Shown: positions 6,545 through 44,720 of the stretch, in pieces
Layout: each line of letters opens with the position of its first letter
How positions within the stretch are numbered: position 1 is the stretch's first letter
NCBI GenBank assembly: GCA_049302815.1
Contig: JBAQMM010000252.1
Span: 957 to 64,956, forward strand
Direction of reading: 5' to 3'
Length of the DNA: 64,000 nt
Source of the DNA: Anaerolineaceae bacterium
GTDB taxonomy: Bacteria > Chloroflexota > Anaerolineae > Anaerolineales > Anaerolineaceae
Translations under genes and position numbers: made by a program
The notes under the pieces: model-generated
The model's input: the letters and a program-made list of their open reading frames with translations, nothing else
Databases searched by the model: none
What the model was told of the DNA's origin: nothing

Positions 6545-6894
6545 AACAGTGGTATCTTGTCCACATGTAACGAGAGAGTTCTCCCATCGCCCCTTTGACA
6601 CAACAGTAGAATCACATGACGGGCTCAATCAATGCAATTGGAGAATATACCCAAGCTTGCTGCCCAAACGCCTTATTATGTGCTTCTTTCATGTTATATT
6701 GCGGGTAAAATGTCTTCCTGAAACAAAATTTTGGGTAATCTTCCGAAAGGACTATTTCAAGCTTACTTGAGCCGTCGAAAGTGCGCCTTCAATAAACACA
6801 ACCAGTGCCACAATAATTCCCAATATCCAGGAATTCGTAAATGTTGCCAGACTCATTACAAACAAATACCAGAATTCTGCGGGATCTGAACGGC

Positions 6895-7468
6895 TTAAGC
6901 GTTCCGCTCCAATCTGGTAAACCACAACCCCGTGACCAACATTCCCACCAACGAGATCCCATAAATCAGCATGGCAGCAGCGCTGCTGGGTAAGTCCCCG
7001 ACACTGAGATTTACCCCCCGGCAGGTTTTGGTCAGCAACGGAATAAAAGCGACTTCCTCACCCAGGTAAACTCGCACCAGGATATATTTCCCAGTGATCA
7101 AATTGTTTGCGTTAATGTCCCGGCTGAAAGTAAAACTCTCACCAGGCTCCAACTCCATCGTCTTTTCCCTCTTGACAAACCCATATGACTTCTCAGGATA
7201 TTATGGTCCGTAAAATCCGTACGGCTGTTTCATCAGAGGTATTGGAAGCTTTGGCGGTAACGATTTTGGTTTCACCTGAGCTAATGAAAACCGGGCAGGG
7301 CATTAAGGTCAATTTAGCCTCTATATTTTCAGAACGCCCCATGCTTCCAACATTTGGGGACCCCAGAATGCCATGATCTCATGGGAGGAATAGAGACAAA
7401 AGGTATTACTGACCAATAAGATGACGGCCAGTAGGATAAACAGGGAAGGTAAGATGATTTTTAACGAT
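6895..7468 (-). pseudogene. Possible frameshifted gene for a bitopic membrane/surface protein (only 6895-7158 is an intact ORF)
   Basis: Three consecutive minus-strand reading-frame pieces read like one protein. The first is a TM-like KIILPSLFILLAVILLV. The second is GETKIVTAKASNTSDETAVRILRTIIS. The third is EKSYGFVKREKTMELEPGESFTFSRDIN...GKYILVRVYL... with a C-terminal TM. Stops and frame changes separate the pieces. Confidence 0.3.
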
Positions 7469-7580
7469 TGGGCTTTGTTTCAAGGAAAAACCTCTACCTT
7501 AGAATTATGCATAGGATCATAGCGCTTGGAGCTGTTAAGTTCTTGTGTAATTTTTTGCCCGGGCTTATGTGCTGTTTACC

Positions 7581-7760
7581 CCAGCAATTCCCAATATGAA
7601 TTTGTCAAAATCCATCCAAAGTAATTTTCGTAAATCAAGTGACACACCCTATATGTTTTGATTCTCACAGGGTGTGCACTGGTTTGTGCACACCAGAAAG
7701 GCATGTTGAGGCAATGCTTGCCAGAATCACCAAAGAGCTTCTCCATATTGAGAATTGCGG
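7581..7760 (+). mobile_element. MITE-like non-autonomous element, copy 1 (180 bp)
   Basis: Perfect 8 bp direct repeats TGTTTACC lie at 7573-7580 and 7761-7768. The terminal inverted repeats are ccaGCAATTCcCAATATGa (left) and the reverse complement of the right end, ccGCAATTCTCAATATGGa. There is no ORF. The element shares a 60 nt left module (57/60) and a roughly 46 nt right module with the copy at 38421-38614. Confidence 0.7.
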
Positions 7761-7821
7761 TGTTTACCTGGACCGACCTGATTTGATGCTAAAATTGGAT
7801 CATCAATTTATGGAGGTTCTT

Positions 7822-8334
7822 ATGCCACAACAGCAATGGAAAACCGAACCAGCCTTGCAGCTGGACCCAGCCAAAAAGTACACCGCCATGTTTAAGACGG
7901 ATAAAGGTGATATCGGCGTCGGGCTTTACGCGGACAGGGTTCCCCACACCGTGAATAATTTTGTCTTCCTCGCGCGTCAGGGCTATTACGACAACACCAT
8001 CTTTCACCGGGTCATCAAAGACTTCATGGCTCAGGCCGGAGACCCAACCGGAACCGGTCGAGGAGGTCCTGGTTACCAGTTCAGAGATGAGTTTGACCCA
8101 AAACTTAAACACGACAAGGCAGGTGTGCTCTCCATGGCAAATGCCGGTCCGAATACCAACGGCTCCCAGTTTTTCATCACGCATGTGCCAACCCCCTGGT
8201 TGGATGGGAAGCACGCCATTTTTGGTCAGGTCATTTCCGGGTTGGATGTGCTGCTGTCCTTTCCTCCCCGTGACCCAATGCTGATCAATTCTCCGGCAGC
8301 AAAACTTCTGACAGTTGTCATCAATGAAGAATAA
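7822..8334 (+). CDS. ppiB: Cyclophilin-type peptidyl-prolyl cis-trans isomerase
   Basis: It has [32 protein letters not shown] and [12 protein letters not shown] 7822 is preceded by GGAGG at 7812-7816. The tracked GTG start at 7639 reads through the MITE and is unlikely. Confidence 0.9.
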
Positions 8335-8374
8335 TTGTCAAATTCCCAATCAAAACCATAAGGAGGCAACAATC

Positions 8375-9910
8375 TTGCGACAAATTGTGTTAGATGGGAA
8401 TTCACTTACGATCGAGGAGGTGCTCGAAGTCGCGCATCATCCGGAAACGGTAGTTAAGCTCTCCGACGCAGCCATAACAGGTATCCAGCGCTCTGCACAG
8501 GCGGTTGCCAGATTCGCTTCTGAAGGCAAAATTGCCTATGGGATCACCACCGGTTTCGGTGCTTTTAAGGATCACCTCATCTCCCCGGATCAAGTTGAAA
8601 AGTTGCAGGAAAACATCCTTTTAAGTCACGCGGTGGGTGTGGGGGAATATCTGGATGAGGTTGCCACCCGGGCGATGATGCTCATTCGGGCCAATACGCT
8701 TGCCCGAGGATATTCTGGCATTCGCCTCGAAACGCTCCAGCTTCTATTGGATTTGCTCAATCGCAACATCCTGCCGTTGATCCCGGAAAAAGGCTCACTG
8801 GGTGCCAGCGGAGATCTTGCCCCCCTGGCGCACATGGCTTTGCCGTTGATCGGTCAGGGGCAGGTGCGCTTTCAAGGGAAGAGCCTCCCCGCCCTGGAAG
8901 CTCTGACCAAAGCAGGTCTTGTTCCCATCCGCCTTTCAGCCAAGGAAGGCTTGGCGCTCACCAATGGCACCACCTTGATGACCGCCTTGGGTGTTTTGGC
9001 TGTAGACCAGGCTGAAAAATTAATGTCCACTGCCAACCTGGCAGCAGGATTGACTTTGGAAGCCCAAAACGGGACCTTGATGGCATTTGAAGATCCTATC
9101 CACAGCTTACGCCCCCAACCCTGGCAGCGCAAAACAGCTGCACAAATGCGCAGCATTCTGGAGGGCAGCCAACTCACCAGACCAGACGACCCCACCAATA
9201 TTCAGGATGCCTACACCCTGCGCTGCATTCCACAGGTGCACGGCGCCATCCATAGCGCCATCGACTACGCGAAAACCGTCATTATTATCGAGCTTAACTC
9301 TGTCACAGACAACCCATTGTTATTCCTGGATGAATACGAAGAAGCGCAGATTATCTCAGGCGGTAATTTCCACGGCGAACCTTTGGCTTTAGCGTTGGAC
9401 TTTCTCAACATCGCTATGACCGACCTCGGAAACATTTCCGAACGGCGGATTGCCAAGCTGGTGGACAACAAATCCGATTCGCATACTTATCCACCCTTTC
9501 TGACGGAATGCGGTGGTTTGAATTCCGGTTTCATGCTTTTACAGTACACCGCTGCTGCGTTAACCTCTGAGAATAAAACCCTTTCCCACCCTTCCAGCAC
9601 GGACAGCATCCCCTCTTCCGGCAACGTGGAAGACCATGTCAGCATGGGTCCCAATGCCGCCCTGCATTGCCGGGAAATCCTGAAGAATCTGTCCTCCATC
9701 CTTGCCATTGAACTGTTTTGTGGCGCCCAGGCGCTTGACTTCCGCCTGCAAAAAGACCCCAGCCAGAGAATGGGTAAAGGCACCAGCCAGGCATACCAGC
9801 TTGTGCGCTCCGCGGCACCCTTCATCCCGGCGGATACTTTGATGTATCCTTACCTTGAAAAGGTAACGGACATGGTTCGCGCTGGATTGTTTGCTTCAAT
9901 TTTGAGCTGA
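8375..9910 (+). CDS. hutH: Histidine ammonia-lyase
   Basis: It has the MIO-forming GSLGASGDLAPLAH, YGITTGFG, and LLSHAVGVG with the Ser-His pair typical of HAL rather than PAL/TAL. TTG 8375 lies 8 nt after AGGAGG. The in-frame ATG at 8315 is an alternative start. Confidence 0.9.
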   Translation: MRQIVLDGNSLTIEEVLEVAHHPETVVKLSDAAITGIQRSAQAVARFASEGKIAYGITTGFGAFKDHLISPDQVEKLQENILLSHAVGVGEYLDEVATRAMMLIRANTLARGYSGIRLETLQLLLDLLNRNILPLIPEKGSLGASGDLAPLAHMALPLIGQGQVRFQGKSLPALEALTKAGLVPIRLSAKEGLALTNGTTLMTALGVLAVDQAEKLMSTANLAAGLTLEAQNGTLMAFEDPIHSLRPQPWQRKTAAQMRSILEGSQLTRPDDPTNIQDAYTLRCIPQVHGAIHSAIDYAKTVIIIELNSVTDNPLLFLDEYEEAQIISGGNFHGEPLALALDFLNIAMTDLGNISERRIAKLVDNKSDSHTYPPFLTECGGLNSGFMLLQYTAAALTSENKTLSHPSSTDSIPSSGNVEDHVSMGPNAALHCREILKNLSSILAIELFCGAQALDFRLQKDPSQRMGKGTSQAYQLVRSAAPFIPADTLMYPYLEKVTDMVRAGLFASILS

Positions 9911-14384: not shown

Positions 14385-16493
14385 GTGGATCCTATCTTAA
14401 CCGGACTTCTTAAGCCAAAAAGCATCGCCATCATTGGAGCGTCAACGACTCCTGGGAAAATTGGTTACAAAGTTATTCTTAATCTTATTGAAAGTGGATA
14501 CAAAGGCGGGGTTTATCCTGTTAACCCGACCGCTACGGAGATTTTAGGGTTCAAGTGTTACCCGTCTGTCAATGATATTCCCTATGTGGTGGACGCGGCG
14601 GTGGTCACTGTTCCGGCCAAATTGGTCCTGGGCGTTACCAAACAGTGCGGTGAAAAAGGGGTCAAAGGCTTGATCATTATCACCTCAGGTTTTGCCGAGG
14701 TGGGTGACGTGGAAACCGAACACGAAATCGTCAGGGTAGCGAAGTCCTATGGAATGCGCGTTTTAGGTCCAAACATCGTCGGAACGCTTTCCAATAGCGA
14801 CCACATGAATGCGTCTTTTTCACCATTCCTCCCATTAGCCGGTAAGGCTTCCCTGGTGTCTCAAAGCGGCGCGCTGCTGATCGCCATGGATGCTGCCACT
14901 TACACCCGCCGGGTTGGCTTTGACAAAATGGTTTCGATTGGCAATATGTCGGATGTGAACTTCTCGGACATGATCTCGTACCTGAACGAAGACCCGGACA
15001 CCAACTGCATCACCTTGTACATGGAAGGGCTACGCGATGGCCCTCGTTTCATCGAAGAAGCCCGCAAAGCCACCAAGCCCATTGTGGTACTTAAGTCCGG
15101 CGTGTCAGCGCATGGTGCCGCCGCTGCGGCTTCCCATACCGGCTCACTGGCTGGTGCTGCCAAAGTCTACAGTGCTGCCTTCCAGCAGGCTGGCGTCACC
15201 CAGGCAACAGATCTCAATGACCTGTTTGACCGCACGCTGGCACTTTCTCTCCAGCCCCGCATGAAAGGTGACAACCTGTTGATTCTCACGAACGGTGGTG
15301 GCGTCGGTGTTTTGGCAACCGACTCGGCTGAAAAATTCGGTCTCCCTCTGCATTTTGCTCCAGCGGAAGTCCAGGAAGAACTTAAGAAACACATGCCGGA
15401 ATTTGGTTCAGCCAAAAACCCGGTGGATATGACCGGCATGGCCGGCAATGACTGGTTCTATCAAACCACCAAATTCTCCTATACGCACCCTTGGGTGGAT
15501 GGTCTGGTGGTCTTGTACTGTGAAACAGCCATCACCGTCCCAGAAGAAATTGCTGAGGCAATCTACCGCGGTATCAAAGATTCCGGCATCACTGACAAAC
15601 CCGTTACCGTTTCCTTTGTTGGCGGAGAACGCAGCGACAAAGCCATGGAATGGCTGGTAGAACAAGGAGTTCCAGCCTACGGCGCCCCCGACATTGCGGT
15701 AAAAGCCATGGCAACCCTACGCGACGATCAACGCATGAGTGAACGGAACAATGCGGCTGAGTACGTGCCTGAGAATATTAACTCCGCCAAAGCCCGCGAG
15801 ATCATCGCCAATGCCCGCGCCATTGGTCGCACCGCCCTGACAGAAATCGAAGCCAAACAAGTTTTCAGCCTTTACGGGCTGCCGGTTACGCCGACTGAGA
15901 TTGCCAAATCTGAAGAAGAAGCTGTCAAGTTTGCCGATAAGATCGGTTATCCGTTAGTCATGAAGATTGTCTCGCCTGATATCTTGCATAAGTCTGATGC
16001 CGGCGGCGTGAAAGTCAATATTAAGAACGCCACACAGGTCCTCGAAGCTTATCGTGCCATCCTGGAAAACGCCCACAACTACAAAGCCGATGCCTTCATT
16101 GACGGTATCGCTGTGCAGGAAATGGCACCCTGGGCCACCGAAGTCATCATTGGTTCAGTGAACGACAGCACCTTCGGACCAACTGTCATGTTTGGCCTGG
16201 GTGGTATCTTCGTGGAAGTTTTGAAGGACGTCACTTTCCGGGTCGCGCCCATTTCAGTCGAAGAAGCGTTAACCATGGAAGATGACATCCGCAGCGCTGC
16301 CATTCTTAACGGCACGCGCGGTGAACTTCCCCGCGACAAGCAGGCACTTGCCAAGGTGCTGGCTGGTTATGCTTATATGGTTTACGATCTCAAAGATGAA
16401 ATCGCCGAGTCTGATGCCAATCCGGTGATCGTCTATGAAACCGGCAAGGGCGTCAAGGTTGTGGATGCCCGCATTATTCTGACCAAAAAATAA
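14385..16493 (+). CDS. ADP-forming acetyl-CoA synthetase (fused alpha-beta, NDP-forming acyl-CoA synthetase family)
   Basis: It has the CoA-binding PKSIAIIGAS..PGKIG, phosphohistidine-loop SHTGSLAG and a C-terminal ATP-grasp domain. GTG 14385 lies 5 nt after GGAGG. TTG 14349 is in frame but sits directly on a TATACT -10-like hexamer. Confidence 0.88.
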   Translation: MDPILTGLLKPKSIAIIGASTTPGKIGYKVILNLIESGYKGGVYPVNPTATEILGFKCYPSVNDIPYVVDAAVVTVPAKLVLGVTKQCGEKGVKGLIIITSGFAEVGDVETEHEIVRVAKSYGMRVLGPNIVGTLSNSDHMNASFSPFLPLAGKASLVSQSGALLIAMDAATYTRRVGFDKMVSIGNMSDVNFSDMISYLNEDPDTNCITLYMEGLRDGPRFIEEARKATKPIVVLKSGVSAHGAAAAASHTGSLAGAAKVYSAAFQQAGVTQATDLNDLFDRTLALSLQPRMKGDNLLILTNGGGVGVLATDSAEKFGLPLHFAPAEVQEELKKHMPEFGSAKNPVDMTGMAGNDWFYQTTKFSYTHPWVDGLVVLYCETAITVPEEIAEAIYRGIKDSGITDKPVTVSFVGGERSDKAMEWLVEQGVPAYGAPDIAVKAMATLRDDQRMSERNNAAEYVPENINSAKAREIIANARAIGRTALTEIEAKQVFSLYGLPVTPTEIAKSEEEAVKFADKIGYPLVMKIVSPDILHKSDAGGVKVNIKNATQVLEAYRAILENAHNYKADAFIDGIAVQEMAPWATEVIIGSVNDSTFGPTVMFGLGGIFVEVLKDVTFRVAPISVEEALTMEDDIRSAAILNGTRGELPRDKQALAKVLAGYAYMVYDLKDEIAESDANPVIVYETGKGVKVVDARIILTKK

Positions 16494-21795: not shown

Positions 21796-23151
21796 TTATT
21801 GGGTTTTTCCCGATGCTAGATCTACATCTGCCAACGTCAGAGCAGAATCAATGACATCAATGCCTTCTTTGAGCTGTTCATCAGTGATGATCAGCGGGGG
21901 CATGACCAGGAGCATATGGAAAGTGTTATACATAAACACCCCATGCCCGGCGATGTAATCTTTGACCTTCTTCATCGTGGTTCCCAACGGCCTGCCGGGT
22001 TCGGTCAGAGGTTCCTTGGTGCCGCGATCCTTTACTAACTCGATCGCAGCGAACAGACCAATCGAACGAACTTCCCCCACGCAGGGATGCTTCGCCATCA
22101 ATTCTGCCAGCAATTTTTTCAATGTTTCACCCCGAAGTGTGGCGTTTTCAAGCAGTCTTTCGTTTTCAATCACCTCGATATTGGCAATCGCGGCTGCCAG
22201 GGAAACCGGGTGACCGTTGTATGTCAGCCCGCCAAAATACATCTGGTTGTTGTAGTGCGCCGCGATTTCCCTTTTCATTGCCACCGCTCCCAGGGGGGCA
22301 TAAGCGGAAGTAAGCCCTTTTGCCATGGTGATGATGTCCGGAACGATGCCCCAATGCTCGAAAGCAAACCACTTGCCAGTTCGTCCGAAACCACACATGA
22401 CTTCGTCGGTGATCATCAGGATGTTGTATTTGTCACATAAAGCCCGGACACCCTGCAAATATCCATCCGGGGGAATGATGATACCGTTCGTACCGGTCAC
22501 CGTTTCCAAAAGGATGGCGGCTATAGTCTCAGCACCTTCGTAACGGATGATTTCCTCCAGGTGGTCAAGATACGCCCGGCAAAATTGAGCCTCGCTCACA
22601 TCCGGCCGGCCATGGAAGAAGACTGAGCGGTAACGAGAAGGGTCAAGAAAATGCACCACTCCAGGCATGGTGTTTGGTTCCCAGTGCAGCCGGCGATAAT
22701 CGCCGGTCAGAGCCATGGCACCCATGGTTGCTCCATGATAGGAACGATAACGGGTCAGGATCTTGAACTTCCCCGTGAAGTCCCTGGCAAGTTTTATGGC
22801 GTTCTCATTGGCATCGGAACCGCCTAATGTGTACAGGAAATGATCCAAGCCAGGGGGCGTCAGGGATGCCAGCTTCTGACCCAGCAGTGCCCGCGGCTTG
22901 GTCACCATGTGCGGTCCTGCGAAGGTCAATTCGCGGATCTGTTCAATCATGGCTTCCTGCACATGCTCATTCCCATGACCAATATTCACACACATCACCG
23001 TTGAATTGAAATCCAGGTATCTTTTTCCGTCTGCATCCCAAAAGTAAACCCCCTTTGCTTTATTGATGTGAATGATTGAGGGATTTTGTTGGGCAGACCA
23101 GGTCCAAAAATTATGTTTCATGGAGAGGGATAACATTTCGTCCTCTGGCAT
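21796..23151 (-). CDS. Class III (omega) aminotransferase
   Basis: 451 aa with SYHG, ITDEVMCGFGRTG and a MAKGLTS PLP-lysine context. Confidence 0.87.
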   Translation of the reverse strand: MPEDEMLSLSMKHNFWTWSAQQNPSIIHINKAKGVYFWDADGKRYLDFNSTVMCVNIGHGNEHVQEAMIEQIRELTFAGPHMVTKPRALLGQKLASLTPPGLDHFLYTLGGSDANENAIKLARDFTGKFKILTRYRSYHGATMGAMALTGDYRRLHWEPNTMPGVVHFLDPSRYRSVFFHGRPDVSEAQFCRAYLDHLEEIIRYEGAETIAAILLETVTGTNGIIIPPDGYLQGVRALCDKYNILMITDEVMCGFGRTGKWFAFEHWGIVPDIITMAKGLTSAYAPLGAVAMKREIAAHYNNQMYFGGLTYNGHPVSLAAAIANIEVIENERLLENATLRGETLKKLLAELMAKHPCVGEVRSIGLFAAIELVKDRGTKEPLTEPGRPLGTTMKKVKDYIAGHGVFMYNTFHMLLVMPPLIITDEQLKEGIDVIDSALTLADVDLASGKTQ

Positions 23152-35809: not shown

Positions 35810-37657
35810 TTACCTCTGCTCCCTGGCAAGAATTTGATCCTTGGCCCAAATGGCGGTCATCGGCAGACCGCCAATCTCCGTGATGGAGATCAGCTTCTCG
35901 TAATGTTGTGAATCTTCCAATTTCAAGATCGAACACAGTTGACCGTCGCGGTTTAATTCCAGGACATAACAGCGTTCGTGACTGCCAATAAAGCCATGCA
36001 CCTGATCGTTACTCGGCAGCGAGCGGATGCGCAAGTAATCCACTGGCAAGCCCGCCTCCGCCAGCATATCTTGAGCTTCGCTCATTGCCGGCTCGGTGGA
36101 GCCCATGCCGATCAGCCCAATCCTGGCACCTTCTTTTTCCCTGATTACCGGTGCAGGCAGGTCTTTCACCACATTTTGTAGCTTCTTCTTTATTCTGAGC
36201 AGCATATCTGTCCAGTTTTTGGGATCCTCGCTGTAATTGCCATAGACATCATGACCGGTACCCCGGGTGAAATACGGCGCGGCCGGGTTTTGATTGCCCA
36301 TGACCGTGCGGTAAGGAATCCCATCCCCATCAAAGTCAAGGTAGCGCCCCCATTTGCCTTCAAACCTGGCCATGTCTTCCTCCCAGATGATTTTCCCCCG
36401 GTCAATCGGTCGGTCTGGATAGTCGAATTTTTTGGTGATCCATTGGTTCATCCCCAGGTCCAGGTCACTCAAAACGAAAATGGGGGTCTGGTAATGCTCA
36501 GCCAGATCGAAAGCCTTCCAACCGAATTCAAAACATTCATTAACGCTCCCCGGGATAAGGATAACGTGGCTGACGTCCCCGTGTCCCAGATAATAAACCA
36601 TGGAAAGATCTCCCTGGGCGGTTCGGGTGGGCAAACCCGTGCTCGGACCAACCCGCTGGACATCCCAGATTACAACTGGTGTTTCGGTAAAGTATGCCAG
36701 ACCAACGTTTTCCGTCATCAGGCTGAGCCCCGGACCGGAGGTGGAAGTCATCGCCCTAAGCCCCGCCCAACCAGCGCCAATGGCAGCACCTATAGCCGCC
36801 AATTCATCTTCCACCTGTAAAATCGCGCAGGTGTTCTTACCAGATATGGGATCTTTGCGCAGATTTGGATTGTGAACGATCATGTCCTCCACCATGCTTG
36901 AGGCTGGCGTGATGGGGTACCAGGAGCAAAACTCCACCCCACCAAAAAGCGATCCCAAGGCTCCGGCATTGTTGCCGTCCGTCAGGATGCAATCATCGAG
37001 AGGAGGAAGTTGCCGCACATAAAAACGATCCCGCTTCTCAAGATTGGCAGCCGCCCACTCATATCCAAGCTTTACCATGTTCAAGTTCGATTCGGCCGCG
37101 GCAGGCTTGGAAGCAAAGTGTTTGCCTAAAGCATAGGCAATACTCTCCAGAGTGATGCCAAGCACTTGACCCACGATGCCAACATAAGTCATGTTCTCCA
37201 TATAATCGCGCATGTTGCGGGGAACACCCGCCTGTTTGACCAGGGATCGGATGGGCATGGGATAAAAGATCAGGTCACTTCTGGCATCTGCAGGTTTCTG
37301 GATATGATCCGCGTAAAAAATCACCCCTCCTTCAGGAAGATAAGTGAGATCCTCCAGGAAGGTTTCCTGATTCATCGCAACAATAATGTCATCGTAGGGT
37401 ACCCTGCCGATGTAACCCTTTTCTGATGCCCGGATCACGAACCAGGTCGGCAGCCCCTTGATATTGGAGGGAAAGATGTTTTTTCCTGAAGTAGGAATCC
37501 CCATTTTGAATAAGGCACCATACAGGGTACTGTTAGCAGTCGCACTGCCGGAGCCGTTTACGGTACAAATCGTCATGCAAAAATCATTGACGATCGGTGC
37601 CAATCCATCCTGAGATTTTGTGTCAGCCATAATCATTGCAAATTCTCTCCTCTTCAT
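35810..37657 (-). CDS. korA: 2-oxoacid:ferredoxin oxidoreductase alpha subunit (fused gamma-alpha type)
   Basis: 615 aa with an N-terminal gamma-like domain (TICTVNGSGSATAN) and a pyrimidine-binding domain (YPITPAS...). Confidence 0.9.
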   Translation of the reverse strand: MKRREFAMIMADTKSQDGLAPIVNDFCMTICTVNGSGSATANSTLYGALFKMGIPTSGKNIFPSNIKGLPTWFVIRASEKGYIGRVPYDDIIVAMNQETFLEDLTYLPEGGVIFYADHIQKPADARSDLIFYPMPIRSLVKQAGVPRNMRDYMENMTYVGIVGQVLGITLESIAYALGKHFASKPAAAESNLNMVKLGYEWAAANLEKRDRFYVRQLPPLDDCILTDGNNAGALGSLFGGVEFCSWYPITPASSMVEDMIVHNPNLRKDPISGKNTCAILQVEDELAAIGAAIGAGWAGLRAMTSTSGPGLSLMTENVGLAYFTETPVVIWDVQRVGPSTGLPTRTAQGDLSMVYYLGHGDVSHVILIPGSVNECFEFGWKAFDLAEHYQTPIFVLSDLDLGMNQWITKKFDYPDRPIDRGKIIWEEDMARFEGKWGRYLDFDGDGIPYRTVMGNQNPAAPYFTRGTGHDVYGNYSEDPKNWTDMLLRIKKKLQNVVKDLPAPVIREKEGARIGLIGMGSTEPAMSEAQDMLAEAGLPVDYLRIRSLPSNDQVHGFIGSHERCYVLELNRDGQLCSILKLEDSQHYEKLISITEIGGLPMTAIWAKDQILAREQR

Positions 37658-38337
37658 TCGAATCGCTGCTGTAATTCCGCCTTTTTGCGCTGTTTGAATA
37701 AGTCCATATGGGCTGTCAGTGCCTGAAATCCTTTTTCAAATTCACGCGCTTCCAACGCGTCAACAATGCGTTGATGGTAATTCCAGACTGTTTCCAGATA
37801 GTTTTGATCCAGGTAGTAGTTGACTTCCGCCTGTGCGTACAATTCCCAATAAGTCTCCAATATGCTGAGAACAACCGGATTGTTCAATCGCTGAAAGATG
37901 GTCAGGTGAAAAGCGCGATGTTCCGACTCGGGCACCTGGATCGGTTGCTCATGAATTTTCTGGGTGGCAGTCTTAACCAGCTGGTTAAGACTGGCGATAT
38001 CAGGTCTGTTGAGCAGCGCAGCCGCTTCGTACCAGTAACTTGTTTCAACATGTTTCCGCAGATCACCGTAAGACTCAAATAGGTGGGGCTGCACTTTGAT
38101 GCCATAACGCATGCCAAGTTCTAGGGGTTGGGTCAGGGAAAAAGCACGGGTTTGAATTCCCACCTTTGGTTTCACATCCACAAAACCAAGGCTCCTCGCC
38201 ACTTCCAATTGTTCCCGGACGCTTGAAACACTGATCCCCAGTTCCTGGCTCAACTCAGGAATACTTGGAATTTTGGCATGCTTCTTGGAAGCTTCAGCCA
38301 GATATTCAAGTAGATCAACTTTGATTTTTGGGTTCAT
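37654..38337 (-). CDS. GntR/FadR-family transcriptional regulator
   Basis: 227 aa with an N-terminal winged HTH (IPSIPELSQELGISVSSVREQLEVARSLGFV) and a FadR-type all-helical C-domain. It overlaps korA by 4 nt. Confidence 0.87.
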   Translation of the reverse strand: MNPKIKVDLLEYLAEASKKHAKIPSIPELSQELGISVSSVREQLEVARSLGFVDVKPKVGIQTRAFSLTQPLELGMRYGIKVQPHLFESYGDLRKHVETSYWYEAAALLNRPDIASLNQLVKTATQKIHEQPIQVPESEHRAFHLTIFQRLNNPVVLSILETYWELYAQAEVNYYLDQNYLETVWNYHQRIVDALEAREFEKGFQALTAHMDLFKQRKKAELQQRFE

Positions 38338-38420
38338 TGTGATTAATCTGATTAATCGTATTATTGATCTGGATTATACTTCTGTCTCATCGAATCAGTC
38401 AAGTTGTACAAGCATCTGGC

Positions 38421-38614
38421 GGCAATTCTCACTATGGATTTGTCAAAATCCATCCAAAGTAATTTTCGTAAATCAAGTGACCACTGACGAGGCTTATTTC
38501 ATCTAAACGAACAAACCGCTTGAAACACGCTTCGTCTGGACGAAAGTGATAGGAATATTGAGGTAATGTTGCCAGAATCCCCAAAGAGCTTTTCCATATT
38601 GAGAATTGCTGAGT
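38421..38614 (+). mobile_element. MITE-like non-autonomous element, copy 2 (194 bp)
   Basis: ATCTGGC direct repeats lie at 38414-38420 and 38615-38621. The terminal inverted repeats are gGCAATTCTCAcTATGGa (left) and the reverse complement of the right end, actcaGCAATTCTCAATATGGa. It shares a 44 nt perfect block (ATTTGTCAAAATCCATCCAAAGTAATTTTCGTAAATCAAGTGAC) with copy 1. Confidence 0.7.
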
Positions 38615-38782
38615 ATCTGGCCATTTTGTGAGATATATCGTTAAGACTCAGCCATTGGTCCCCTTGTCTGGCTCAATCAGGGTCAATTTGTCTGTATTTG
38701 ATGCGTTTCCTGTCGTTAAGCGCGTCTGTACGGTAAAATCTAAGTTCTTATTGCCATTATTGAGGCGTGTCATCATCTGTCT

Positions 38783-40537
38783 ATGAGTATTAGCGAATTT
38801 TCAATTCCATTCCGGTATAAAACCAACCGCTCCACTCCATTCACTTGGATCTGGTCTCATACGCTTCATCATTGGGCAATCTTCGTGGTTGCCATGATTG
38901 GTGCCATTGGCAATGCTGCCCTCGCGTCTGTTCCAGCAGTTCAATTTGGCACCGTTTTTACCAACCTCACCAGTGGCTCGCCCGCCATGCCCACCATCGT
39001 GCGCTCCGCTGTGATCATCGGGTTATCCCAGGTTGCCCGCGGTGTGTTCCAATTCCTGCGCAACTATGGCTTTGAGGTCACCGCTCAGCGAATCGAGAGG
39101 GATGTGCGGGAGGAGTTTTACATCAGTCTGCTTGGCAAGAGTATGACTTTTCATTCCCTGCAATCCATCGGAGACCTGATGGCGCGGGCGACTAATGATA
39201 TTCGGGAGGTCAATTTCCTCTTCAGCCCCGGCATCAATATGGTCTTCGGTTCCATCAATTTTCTTTTCATCCCGCTGATCATTGGACCTCAAATTCATCC
39301 CGCCTTGATTCTGACCCCATTGCTTTTCATCATTGCCTACTTCATTTCGATCGTTCACTACTTGAGAATTCTCAAACCCATCACGGATCGGGTTCGATCC
39401 AGTTTTGGATTGATGAACAGCCGTCTGGCGGAAGCCATTGACGGCATCGAGACTGTCAAAGCCGCCGCCCAGGAAGACTCTGAGATCAAGCTGTTTGAGA
39501 AAAATATCAAATCCTACCGGGATGCCAGTGTTGAACAGGGTGATGTGGAAGCCAAATTCCTTCCGTTGCTCCTGCTTGCCATGGCGATGGGTTTCGGTTT
39601 GCTGCACGCTTTGCTGCTCTTCCAAAAAGGTGAAATTCCTTTGGGAGGGGTCATTTCTTATTTCAGCGCCCTGTCCCTGCTGGGGTTCCCCACCAATACC
39701 TCCATTCACTCGTACTCACAGATTTCTCTGGGTATTGCCGGTGCTCGCAGGTTATTGAGCGTCATGAACCTGGAGAACAACCTGGATCAGAACGATGCCG
39801 GCTACAACCAGCCCATGCACGGAGAGGTCGTCTTCAATAATGTCAACTTTTCCTACAATCAAAAAAAGACTATCCTGGAGCATATCAATTTTCAAGTATC
39901 CCCGGGTCAGACGGTTGCCATTGTGGGTCAAACCGGCTCTGGAAAAACCAGCCTGGTGCGCCTGATCAACCGAACTTATGACCCTGATCAAGGTCAGGTT
40001 TTGATCGATAACCACGATTTGCGGGAATGGAAGTTGGACAGCCTGCGCAGTCAGATTTCCATTATCGAACAGGATATTTTCCTTTTTTCGAAATCCATTC
40101 ACGAGAATATTGCCTTCGGAAAGCCCGATGCGACCCGAACAGAGGTCGAAGAGGCCGCCAAAAAAGCCCAGGCACATGAGTTTATTAGCACCATGCCAGA
40201 TGGCTATGACACGGTGATTGGCGAGCGCGGGGTAACCCTATCCGGCGGTCAGCGCCAAAGGATCGCTCTTGCTCGGGCATTTTTGACCGACCCAAAAATT
40301 CTCATCCTGGATGATTCAACCAGTGCGATCGACAGCAAAACCGAAGATGAAATTCAAAAAGCCATCCAAACCGCCTCGGAAGGACGGACAACTTTCATTA
40401 TTACCCATCGGCTTTCACAAATCCGTTGGGCTGATCAGATCATCGTCATGCGTCAGGGAACGGTGTCAGACATCGGAACTCATGCTGAATTGATGCGCTC
40501 CTCCAGGTCGTATCGCAATATTTTCACGGAAGCTTAG
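38783..40537 (+). CDS. ABC exporter, fused permease/ATPase (heterodimer partner 1)
   Basis: 584 aa with a 6-TM domain, Walker A GQTGSGKTS, signature LSGGQRQR and Walker B ILILDD. Confidence 0.9.
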   Translation: MSISEFSIPFRYKTNRSTPFTWIWSHTLHHWAIFVVAMIGAIGNAALASVPAVQFGTVFTNLTSGSPAMPTIVRSAVIIGLSQVARGVFQFLRNYGFEVTAQRIERDVREEFYISLLGKSMTFHSLQSIGDLMARATNDIREVNFLFSPGINMVFGSINFLFIPLIIGPQIHPALILTPLLFIIAYFISIVHYLRILKPITDRVRSSFGLMNSRLAEAIDGIETVKAAAQEDSEIKLFEKNIKSYRDASVEQGDVEAKFLPLLLLAMAMGFGLLHALLLFQKGEIPLGGVISYFSALSLLGFPTNTSIHSYSQISLGIAGARRLLSVMNLENNLDQNDAGYNQPMHGEVVFNNVNFSYNQKKTILEHINFQVSPGQTVAIVGQTGSGKTSLVRLINRTYDPDQGQVLIDNHDLREWKLDSLRSQISIIEQDIFLFSKSIHENIAFGKPDATRTEVEEAAKKAQAHEFISTMPDGYDTVIGERGVTLSGGQRQRIALARAFLTDPKILILDDSTSAIDSKTEDEIQKAIQTASEGRTTFIITHRLSQIRWADQIIVMRQGTVSDIGTHAELMRSSRSYRNIFTEA

Positions 40538-40544
40538 GAAAATT

Positions 40545-42401
40545 ATGGGATTTGCTTCTGGATTGGCAAGTGAAACCTACGACAGGCAGTACAGCAACAA
40601 AACATTGCTTGGTCGTATTTGGGCTTATGCCAAACCCCACCGTAAGAAAATCATCCTCATTGTGATCGCGGTGATTTTACAAGGGACTTTGGGAGCCCTG
40701 CCGCCTGTGCTTGTCTCCAAAGTCCTGGATGAAGGCATCGCCGGCATACCTGATCAAGCTGCGTTTTTCGCGCTGACAACAGCTGTGATCATCATTGAAG
40801 TCCTGGGATTTGTGCTTTACTACGTCAACCACCGGCTGCTTGCCCGCGTGATTGCTGATATTGACCGGAGCCTCTCCACCGATGCCTTCGCAGCATCTAT
40901 GCACCAGGATATGGCTTTTCACGATGTTTATTCCTCCGGCAGAATTGTCTCCAGGATCACGACCGACACGAGGGATTTTTCCACCCTCATCACCCTCACC
41001 ATGGATGTAGCCAACAGTGCTATGCAATCCCTGGTGACTGCCATCATTCTTCTGACCACCGAATGGCGCCTGGCAATGGGCTTGTTTCTTATCATCCCCG
41101 TCATCATAACCATTGTCTCAGTCTATCGTAATCTTGCCCGCAAGGTCACCCGGCAGGGGATGCGTGCCATGGCGAGCGTAAACGCCACCATCAAAGAGAC
41201 CATCAGTGGAATTGCCGTGGCAAAGAATTTCCGGCAGGAGGAGAGCATATACAAAGACTTCCAGTCCTCAAACGAAACTTCATACAAAATGAATGTTAAA
41301 CGCGGATTGGTGCTTTCGATCGTCTTTCCCACCACAAGAACCCTGGGTGGATTGGCAATTGCCCTACTGGTGTACTACGGGGCGCTTTCCGTGATCCAAG
41401 GCTTGATCACAGCCGGCGCCTGGTATATGTTTGTGCTCAGCACAGACCGCTTCCTGATGCCAATCCTCAGCATCACCTCCTATTGGACGCAGGTTCAAAC
41501 CGGACTTTCTGCCGCAGAGCGCATTTTTGCCTTGATCGATGCTGAACATACAGTGATCCAAACGGGAAGTTACGTGCCCACCCACTTCAAAGGCAAAATA
41601 GATTTCAATCATCTCAATTTTCATTATGGCAATGGCACTGAGGTGCTTAGGGATTTTGACCTGCACATCCAGGAAGGGGAGAACGTCGCCATCGTCGGTC
41701 ATACCGGCGCGGGCAAATCCTCCATCGCCCGCCTGATTGCCAGGTTTTATGAGTTCCAGGGCGGTGAATTGCTGATAGACGATCGGGATATCCGCTCTTA
41801 TGACCTGCAGGGCTTACGGCAGCACATGGGTCTGGTGACACAGGTTCCATTTTTATTTGAAGGCTCCGTCGAAGAGAATATCCGCTTCTCCCAACTTGGT
41901 ATCACCAAGGATGAGATCCTGGCGCTGGCTCACCAGATCGGGGATGGGGAGTGGCTTGAAACGTTTTCGAAAGGGCTCGAAACAGGCGTGGGAGAACGTG
42001 GTTCTCAAATCTCCATGGGTCAGCGTCAATTGGTAGCCCTGATGCGCGTGCTGGCCCAACAACCGTCAGTGTTCATCCTGGATGAAGCCACTGCCAGCAT
42101 TGACCCCTTTACTGAAAAGCAGATTCAAAGTGCGCTTAACCTGATCCTGAAACAGTCCACCAGTGTCTTGATAGCTCATCGCTTATCGACCGTTCAATCC
42201 GCGGACCGGATCATTGTGTTGCGTGAAGGCGTTATCATTGAAGAAGGCAACCACAAGCAGTTATTGCTTCAAGGCGGGCATTATTCCGAGCTCTATAATA
42301 CGTATTTCAGGCATCAAAGTTTGGACTATGTAGAAAAAGTGGGTCAGCAATTTGGTGGGCATCGGCCCAAAACCATCCGAGACGGGCCTTCTCAGATTTG
42401 A
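40545..42401 (+). CDS. ABC exporter, fused permease/ATPase (heterodimer partner 2)
   Basis: 618 aa with Walker A GHTGAGKSS, a degenerate signature ISMGQRQL and Walker B FILDEA. Confidence 0.9.
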   Translation: MGFASGLASETYDRQYSNKTLLGRIWAYAKPHRKKIILIVIAVILQGTLGALPPVLVSKVLDEGIAGIPDQAAFFALTTAVIIIEVLGFVLYYVNHRLLARVIADIDRSLSTDAFAASMHQDMAFHDVYSSGRIVSRITTDTRDFSTLITLTMDVANSAMQSLVTAIILLTTEWRLAMGLFLIIPVIITIVSVYRNLARKVTRQGMRAMASVNATIKETISGIAVAKNFRQEESIYKDFQSSNETSYKMNVKRGLVLSIVFPTTRTLGGLAIALLVYYGALSVIQGLITAGAWYMFVLSTDRFLMPILSITSYWTQVQTGLSAAERIFALIDAEHTVIQTGSYVPTHFKGKIDFNHLNFHYGNGTEVLRDFDLHIQEGENVAIVGHTGAGKSSIARLIARFYEFQGGELLIDDRDIRSYDLQGLRQHMGLVTQVPFLFEGSVEENIRFSQLGITKDEILALAHQIGDGEWLETFSKGLETGVGERGSQISMGQRQLVALMRVLAQQPSVFILDEATASIDPFTEKQIQSALNLILKQSTSVLIAHRLSTVQSADRIIVLREGVIIEEGNHKQLLLQGGHYSELYNTYFRHQSLDYVEKVGQQFGGHRPKTIRDGPSQI

Positions 42402-44137: not shown

Positions 44138-44149
44138 AATCTTAAGATT

Positions 44150-44312
44150 ACTTGGTTGGGAAGAGCCCTGCCCTCAGGCACCGAAGGGGCAAACCTGCAA
44201 ACAACAGGTGAAACTCTCAGGTAAACAGACCCAATCAATGGCTCCTCTGAAGTTGCCAAAATCAAGACGTGAATGACAGAGGCACATGTATCCATGTGCT
44301 TCTTTTAATTTT
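44150..44312 (+). promoter_or_regulatory. Glycine riboswitch (single aptamer) with terminator expression platform
   Basis: The aptamer at 44154-44234 is closed by UUGGG/CCCAA and contains GGGAAGAG, CACCGAAGGGGCAA and CUCUCAGGUAAACAGAC. The terminator is GCACATG-tatc-CATGTGC (44282-44299) plus TTCTTTTAATTTT. It is directly upstream of gcvH. Confidence 0.85.
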
Positions 44313-44333: not shown

Positions 44334-44720
44334 ATGATTTTCCCAAAAGATTTGAAGTACACAAAAACTGATGAGTGGGTAAAAGTTGAAGGTGGAATCG
44401 CCACCATTGGAATTTCCGATTATGCCCAATCCTCCCTCTCGGACGTGGTCTACCTCGAATATGCCATGGAACCTGGTGATGTTGTCAAAGCTGGAGACAA
44501 CCTGGGAACGGTCGAATCGGTCAAAGCCGCATCTGACGTGAGCATCCCGGTCAGTGGTACGGTGACTGAAATCAACGAAGCACTCCCTGACACTCCAGAA
44601 GTGCTGAACAAGGACCCCTACCAGGCTGGTTGGTTGATCAAACTCAAGCTGAACGACCCTGATGAGCTTCAGACGCTGATGGATTCGGAAGCCTATGAAG
44701 CTTACTGCCAGGAACGTTAA
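44334..44720 (+). CDS. gcvH: Glycine cleavage system H protein
   Basis: 128 aa with the lipoyl-lysine motif VESVKAASD. Confidence 0.95.
   Translation: MIFPKDLKYTKTDEWVKVEGGIATIGISDYAQSSLSDVVYLEYAMEPGDVVKAGDNLGTVESVKAASDVSIPVSGTVTEINEALPDTPEVLNKDPYQAGWLIKLKLNDPDELQTLMDSEAYEAYCQER

Follow-up and report, generated by a model that had tools for sequence, protein, structure and literature searches.

Here, we identify a small mobile element in the intergenic region between the divergent gntR-korAB and ABC-exporter operons of an uncultured Anaerolineaceae bacterium, within a 64-kb stretch of DNA that we analysed as a whole (the window). We consider it very probable that this element is a gene-less MITE of about 190 bp. 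It is the second copy of an element that also occupies positions 7582-7760. The copy at the gntR/exporter locus (copy 2) spans 192 bp at 38420-38611 on the plus strand, has a GC content of 40%, and reads in order left TIR, left module, a middle segment (mid2), right module and right TIR. Copy 1 is 179 bp long with 41% GC and also lies on the plus strand, in the same orientation as copy 2; the two copies are 31 kb apart, and both are poorer in GC than the window (49.7%). A previous reading, made from the letters of this DNA alone (the sequence-only reading), had proposed a small mobile element copy with inverted ends and a target duplication in this divergent intergenic region. That core claim holds, with changes to the element's extent and to its proposed regulatory role that we describe below.

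Both copies are bounded by the same imperfect inverted ends. The TIR has a 17-nt core with the consensus GCAATTCTCAATATGGA, or 19 nt with a C-N extension, and its two versions agree at 16 of 17 positions inside each copy. The left TIR of copy 2 lies at 38420-38438 on the plus strand (CGGCAATTCTCACTATGGA), with its core at 38422-38438 (GCAATTCTCACTATGGA) carrying one mismatch to the consensus; the right TIR lies at 38593-38611 on the minus strand (CAGCAATTCTCAATATGGA), with its core at 38609-38593 (GCAATTCTCAATATGGA) carrying none. The ends first proposed, gGCAATTCTCAcTATGGa and, as the reverse complement, actcaGCAATTCTCAATATGGa, are both present in the sequence. A search of the 64 kb for the 17-mer with up to three mismatches returns four matches where 0.28 are expected, and all four are element ends, so that no matching TIR exists elsewhere in the window. 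All four ends have a C at the second base outward from the GCAATT core, and the best-fitting end model, derived like the termini from the two DNA copies, is C-N-GCAATTC...GAATTGC-N-G.

This end model leaves both copies directly abutted by 9-bp repeats that match at eight of nine positions. For copy 2 these are AGCATCTGG at 38411-38419 and AGTATCTGG at 38612-38620, and for copy 1 TGTTTACCC at 7573-7581 and TGTTTACCT at 7761-7769, with one mismatch in each pair. Exact repeats alone give inconsistent offsets, the TIR core being 1 and 5 nt away from ATCTGGC and 3 and 2 nt away from the 8-mer TGTTTACC. The heptamer ATCTGGC had been taken to bracket 194 bp, and it is indeed found at 38414-38420 and 38615-38621, but the extent it implied is replaced by 192 bp flanked by an imperfect 9-bp duplication; the C at 38420, earlier placed in the heptamer flank, is the element's first base on this model. 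The sequence-only reading would have failed if the flanking repeat belonged to a longer conserved sequence, and we find that it extends only to the imperfect 9-mer. Site pairs drawn at random from the window show an adjacent 9-mer of this kind, allowing every symmetric offset from 0 to 5, at a frequency of 9e-4 per site; 1.4% of random sites have an exact repeat of 7 nt or more in their 20-nt flanks, and 0.3% have one of 8 nt or more. Since two unrelated targets are each duplicated equally far from the same inverted ends, we interpret the repeats as the mark left by a transposition event that staggers its cuts by 9 bp. A test for TA duplication was negative: the flanks, AGYATCTGG and TGTTTACCY, have no TA directly at the ends, which excludes the TA-duplicating MITEs derived from IS630/Tc1 (Correia, RUP and Nezha type).

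Between their ends, the two copies share conserved outer modules and differ in the middle. The left module of copy 2 (38422-38481) is identical to 7584-7643 at 57 of 60 positions, with a perfect run of 44 nt at 38438-38481, figures given by the sequence-only reading and confirmed in a whole-window repeat search (95% family). The right module (38548-38592; GATAGGAATATTGAGGTAATGTTGCCAGAATCCCCAAAGAGCTTT) had been described as near-identical to that of copy 1, and the same repeat search bears this out, aligning 38569-38614 with 7718-7763 at 42 of 46 positions (91%); inside the element, the alignment shows two substitutions across the last 41 nt and a 1-nt indel further in. The middles, mid2 of about 66 nt (38482-38547) and mid1 of 52 nt (about 7644-7695), are unrelated by pairwise alignment, and the copies as wholes match at 74.6% over 189 nt in BLASTN (E 5e-26). 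Each middle contains a hairpin, with z-scores between -1.9 and -3.9 (for mid2, -2.6 on the plus strand and -2.8 on the minus strand), and the whole element folds modestly better than shuffled sequences, chiefly through pairing of the TIRs. No Rfam 15 family matches the element at its gathering threshold, and the only match at E<=1 is an 18.7-bit hit (E 0.61) to an unrelated family with a gathering score of 90. Two unrelated features of the window emerged from these surveys. Rfam identifies a glycine riboswitch aptamer (RF00504, 61.9 bits) at 44148-44242 on the plus strand, 5' of the gene for the glycine-cleavage H protein (44334-44720), and 32-nt direct repeats (GGTGTTTTGGC...GGCTGAAAAATT; 66-81% identical) occur inside three long ORFs at 8990-9021, 15306-15337 and 23081-23112, where they may reflect a shared protein motif or chance.

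Prokaryotic MITEs are defined as elements of less than 500 bp with TIRs of 4-30 bp and flanking direct repeats, AT-rich and intergenic, often forming a size gradient (PMC10969869). The copies described here, at 192 and 179 bp, fall below the length bound of roughly 500 bp, as does a longer form of about 320 bp inferred from the translated sequence P0122 (see below), and they share the remaining hallmarks listed in that work: TIRs, flanking direct repeats, absence of coding capacity, AT-richness and an intergenic position (PMC10969869). Both lie in gene-free DNA, copy 2 between divergent genes and copy 1 in a 1.28-kb gap that holds only fragmented minus-strand ORFs on its left side. That gap (6545-7821) is the largest gene-free interval of the window, and copy 1 sits in it between the ORFs at 6770-7510 and a cyclophilin gene. 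The former are several small ORFs on the minus strand, spread over different frames, that resemble pieces of one membrane-anchored protein, with an N-terminal hydrophobic stretch and beta-rich segments, and may represent a frameshifted gene, a pseudogene or assembly indels. The mechanically called cyclophilin ORF starts at GTG 7639 inside copy 1 and crosses its right half in frame (its 7639-7821 part, plus strand), while the likely true start is ATG 7822, which is preceded by GGAGG and is also the start of the Logan gene call.

Protein-level searches led us to further members of the family. The element has no match in Pfam, and an exhaustive phmmer search of 1.84e9 representative proteins gave as true matches only P0122 (81 aa, E 2.7e-5) and its cluster mate P0123; a hit to the repetitive, 907-aa P0121 is a low-complexity artefact. 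P0122 and P0123 are NCBI entries named 'hypothetical protein, partial [Anaerolineaceae bacterium]' from two different contigs of one MAG, and the annotation 'partial' points to contig ends, as expected of a repeat. By tblastn against the window, P0122 opens with the copy 1 right module (residues 1-26) and passes into the copy 1 middle in a different frame (residues 17-35); residues 42-68 correspond to the copy 2 right module and middle, and its final 13 residues to what is left of that middle, in a third frame. Together, tblastn and frame translations match mid2 to residues 47-81 of both proteins in two frames. The P0122 ORF and its contig both stop at the expected start of the left module. 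Because P0122 and P0123 switch frames relative to the window copies, conservation is at the level of DNA and not of protein, and we read the two entries as accidental translations of a longer form of the element. As known from these translations, the long form would carry both middles in series, with a TIR-less partial right module between them; its internal right-module repeat is of the copy 2 type (WEFWQHYLN) and its terminal repeat of the copy 1 type (GKHCLN). The family thus occupies at least two additional loci in another Anaerolineaceae MAG, where it interrupts assembly.

We propose a model for how the two window copies could have arisen. A transposase encoded elsewhere in the genome would bind the inverted ends, mobilising the element in trans, cut the target with a 9-bp stagger and insert the element, and repair of the gaps would then create the 9-bp duplication. 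The two copies would be alternative internal-deletion derivatives of the long form, whose parts we place in the order right end, mid1, truncated right module, mid2 and left end. Copy 2 would have arisen by recombination between the two right-module repeats of the long form, and copy 1 by loss of the inner repeat together with mid2. It is the distribution of repeat types, copy-2-type internally and copy-1-type terminally, that makes a recombinational deletion the simplest origin for copy 2 and loss of the inner repeat and mid2 the simplest for copy 1, as judged from the translations.

An alternative is that the element is an internally deleted IS, a 'type I' MITE, whose conserved modules would preserve the opening and closing codons of the parent's transposase gene. 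In this reading, which we consider unlikely, a minus-strand gene would start at an ATG in the right TIR (MEKLFGDSG...) and end in the left TIR. Several features of the sequence invite it: the ATG lies 14 nt inside the right end, it opens a 56-codon minus-strand ORF (7576-7746) that covers all of copy 1, both substitutions between the copies in the first nine codons are synonymous (GAG/GAA and GGT/GGG), and the left-module frame would stop in the left TIR if that TIR had the consensus sequence. Two synonymous changes, however, are too few to show selection, and the frame opened by this ATG closes after 32 codons in copy 2, where the C-terminal motif is in another frame. None of 5.8e9 proteins shares three 5-residue words with the ORF termini, which we searched as a chimeric N/C-terminal query, and a concatenated six-frame query built from both copies and P0122 found no protein. 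The phmmer search likewise gave only P0122 and P0123, short translations of the element that change frame, and a degenerate codon pattern for IYENYFGW had only chance matches among GTDB representatives and JGI metagenomes.

A parent for the gene-less MITE was also sought more broadly. Chimeric, six-frame and Pfam searches for a parent transposase were all empty, and the searches that we ran found no autonomous IS with matching ends (CNGCAATTCTCAATATGGA). Plasmid, phage and viral collections held no similarity to the element. The degenerate 24-mer ATHTAYGARAAYTAYTTYGGNTGG matched twice in GTDB species-representative genomes and five times in JGI metagenomes, and all seven matches are attributable to chance, with no similarity beyond the pattern itself. 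The source species is apparently absent from both collections, and an exact, non-degenerate core pattern might for this reason do no better.

Comparison with relatives shows that the insertion at the gntR/exporter locus is lineage-specific. Homologues of the regulator all come from Anaerolineaceae or Chloroflexota MAGs and metagenomes. The sequence-only reading called for a comparison of this locus in related genomes, and where GntR is 60-75% identical the element is absent 5' of the gntR orthologue; these relatives retain the gntR-korAB operon and its promoter. Among the relatives compared, none offers a clean empty site: the only near-identical sequence, contig L003, carries the element's end, and those with 60-75% identical GntR are too diverged for base-level alignment. 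L003, a Logan contig from SRR28062805, matches 38451-37154 of the window with one mismatch in 1298 nt (99.9% identity) and breaks off precisely 31 nt into the left end of the element, counted from 38421. The Logan assemblies use a k-mer length of 31, and the stop is suggestive of a de Bruijn assembler halting where unique flank meets a repeat, here one shared from 38422 onwards. We regard this break as suggestive because Logan assemblies also break for coverage, as evidently happened in contig L020 (SRR28062806), which is 100% identical to 7785-9408 and breaks 25 nt outside copy 1. As this break lies outside the element, L020 is uninformative as repeat-break evidence for copy 1.

The region upstream of gntR differs in two of these relatives. 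In the relative with a 75% identical GntR, all five contigs (L004-L006 and L008 from four ENA metagenome assemblies, and L007 from an NCBI MAG) end upstream of gntR, and the ends of L004 (1-170), L005, L006 and L008 fall within the C-terminal part of a transposase of the rve type (...YNHIRPHRALD...; Pfam match to rve_3 at E 6e-5, under the curated cut-off). This rve-type IS shares no sequence similarity with our element, and we reject it as the element's partner. With a different mobile element inserted in a relative at the corresponding place, the intergenic region 5' of gntR-korAB looks like a permissive or favoured landing zone. In L017 and L018, which we reached through a 60%-identical GntR homologue (P0016), a gene for a 247-aa ABC ATPase (L017:4175-4918) lies between the exporter pair and gntR. 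The orthologous exporters on these contigs are 73% and 68% identical to those of the window, and the gntR/exporter site of the window shows no trace of the ATPase gene.

Copy 2 interrupts neither a gene nor a recognisable promoter. Pfam bears out the identity proposed earlier for the flanking genes: an FCD/GntR regulator of the FadR type (37654-38337, minus strand), two POR-type 2-oxoacid:ferredoxin oxidoreductase subunits (korAB) that follow it on the same strand, and, on the plus strand, two exporters with ABC_membrane and ABC_tran domains (38783-40537 and 40545-42401). As first reported, the gntR start (38337) is 84 bp away and the exporter ATG (38783) 169 bp, and on the 192-bp model the exporter start lies 171 nt beyond the copy. 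The highest-scoring promoter-like site of the region, that of gntR-korAB (TTGACT-18-TATAAT, 11 of 12 in a promoter scan), occupies 38373-38402 on the minus strand, where it is intact, lies between the element and the gene, and is 17 nt from the element's left end. The same -35/-10 arrangement is found 5' of the gntR orthologues in L004-L008, L014-L016 and L019. Between the -10 element of this promoter and the start codon lies a direct repeat, GATTAATC-T-GATTAATC, at 38341-38357, which is kept in the form ATTAATC-NN-ATTAAT 5' of gntR in all of the relatives examined (L004-L008, L014-L016 and L019) and is probably an autoregulatory operator of the FadR-type regulator.

The sequence-only reading had further suggested that the element might alter or supply regulatory signals for either operon, a suggestion for which we find no positive support: scans reveal no promoter-like or terminator-like site within either copy, and the gntR promoter is intact. 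We also considered an outward or hybrid promoter and rejected it, as the minus-strand TTGACA at 38447-38442 (7609-7604 in copy 1) has no usable -10 element at 16-18 nt in either copy. With the insertion, the divergent intergenic region grows from about 244 to 445 bp, moving the operons 201 bp further apart. The sole plausible effects of the insertion are this added distance and the new DNA placed upstream of the gntR -35 element, and we think it most likely that copy 2 is carried here as a neutral, tolerated passenger. A more ambitious possibility, which we regard as a long shot, is that the hairpin-bearing mid1 and mid2 are functional cassettes of a modular MITE, with the long form as its master copy, and that the insertion rewires the control region of the FadR-type regulator or insulates it from the exporter operon. 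The cassettes might in that case deliver protein-binding or RNA-processing sites into divergent promoter regions.

More doubtful still is that the element is no transposon but a module that regulates in cis or as a small RNA, for instance as a structured 5' leader or as a binding platform near a promoter, and that is kept for the control of plus-strand genes. Both copies do share one orientation and lie 5' of plus-strand genes, as first reported and confirmed here, and the element and its middles fold somewhat better than shuffled sequences (z -1.9 to -3.9). A shared orientation of two copies, however, is a 50% chance event, and the downstream genes, for a cyclophilin and an ABC exporter, are unrelated. 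The copies differ in the central part, where a specific structure would be expected, the only Rfam match is the meaningless 18.7-bit one, and orthologous loci lack the element. Duplications of two unrelated targets are a footprint of transposition that is not expected of a regulatory element, and together these observations make the regulatory reading highly improbable. Weakest of all is a duplicated minus-strand gene for a small protein or type I toxin-like peptide: the 56-aa, ATG-initiated ORF of copy 1 (7576-7746) speaks for it, but the stop after 32 codons in copy 2, with the conserved C-terminal part in another frame, effectively refutes it, the long-form relatives keep the DNA and not the frame, Pfam has no match, and we give it next to no credence.

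The gene-less MITE that we favour matters mainly for annotation and assembly, and leaves the general understanding of MITEs unchanged. The family accounts for breaks between contigs in metagenome assemblies of Anaerolineaceae and for erroneous 'hypothetical protein, partial' entries, among them MFZ3070925.1 and MFZ3070851.1, which carry the locus tags WA110_07390 and WA110_07015. It also accounts for N-terminal extensions called in error, as when the cyclophilin gene is read from GTG 7639. A full-text literature search found no paper describing MITEs in Chloroflexi. To the known elements our analysis adds one MITE family and a tidy case of what would be deletion-derived subfamilies, and the element would mark recent transposase activity in an uncultured, little-studied and environmentally abundant lineage of the Chloroflexota.

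Among known systems, duplications of 8-10 bp are made by IS4, IS256, IS1, ISAs1 and some IS5 members, for example ISAba12 (ISfinder descriptions). By analogy, a 9-bp stagger combined with short TIRs that start with C would be compatible with IS4-, IS256-, IS1- or ISAs1-like enzymes or with some IS5-like enzymes, which provides a lead to the parent. Correia and RUP elements duplicate TA and are linked to other transposase types, and the ends of Correia elements carry promoter and IHF sites; in contrast, the element described here has a 9-bp duplication and contains no promoter-like site that we could find. Correia elements of Neisseria and ERIC/RUP MITEs are small intergenic elements with TIRs that often lie near promoters and may be co-transcribed with their neighbours (reviews PMC3184786, PMC10969869). 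Similar in kind are QMITE1 and QMITE2 of Coxiella burnetii, which likewise have TIRs and direct repeats, the latter of 7-9 bp, together with a core of 113-145 bp and differently sized, degenerate members within one genome (PMC10969869). Their TIRs are longer, at 23-29 nt compared with 17-19 nt here, their host and sequence are unrelated, and few members of our family are known.

The closest described analogue in architecture is MITEAba12 of Acinetobacter and other Moraxellaceae, a 113-bp element that has imperfect TIRs of some 16 bp, duplicates 9 bp of its target and has ISAba12 as its parent, and whose transposition has been observed experimentally (PMC6382973). MITEAba12 is present at low to moderate copy number per genome and is moved in trans by a DDE transposase resident in the same genome (PMC6382973). 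It has no sequence similarity to our element and resides in a different phylum; its core is highly conserved and its parent identified, whereas the element described here is larger (179-192 bp, with an inferred long form of about 320 bp), has a modular and variable core, and yielded no parent IS in our searches. The two nonetheless share a common design: each is short, gene-less and AT-rich, with short imperfect TIRs and a 9-bp target-site duplication.
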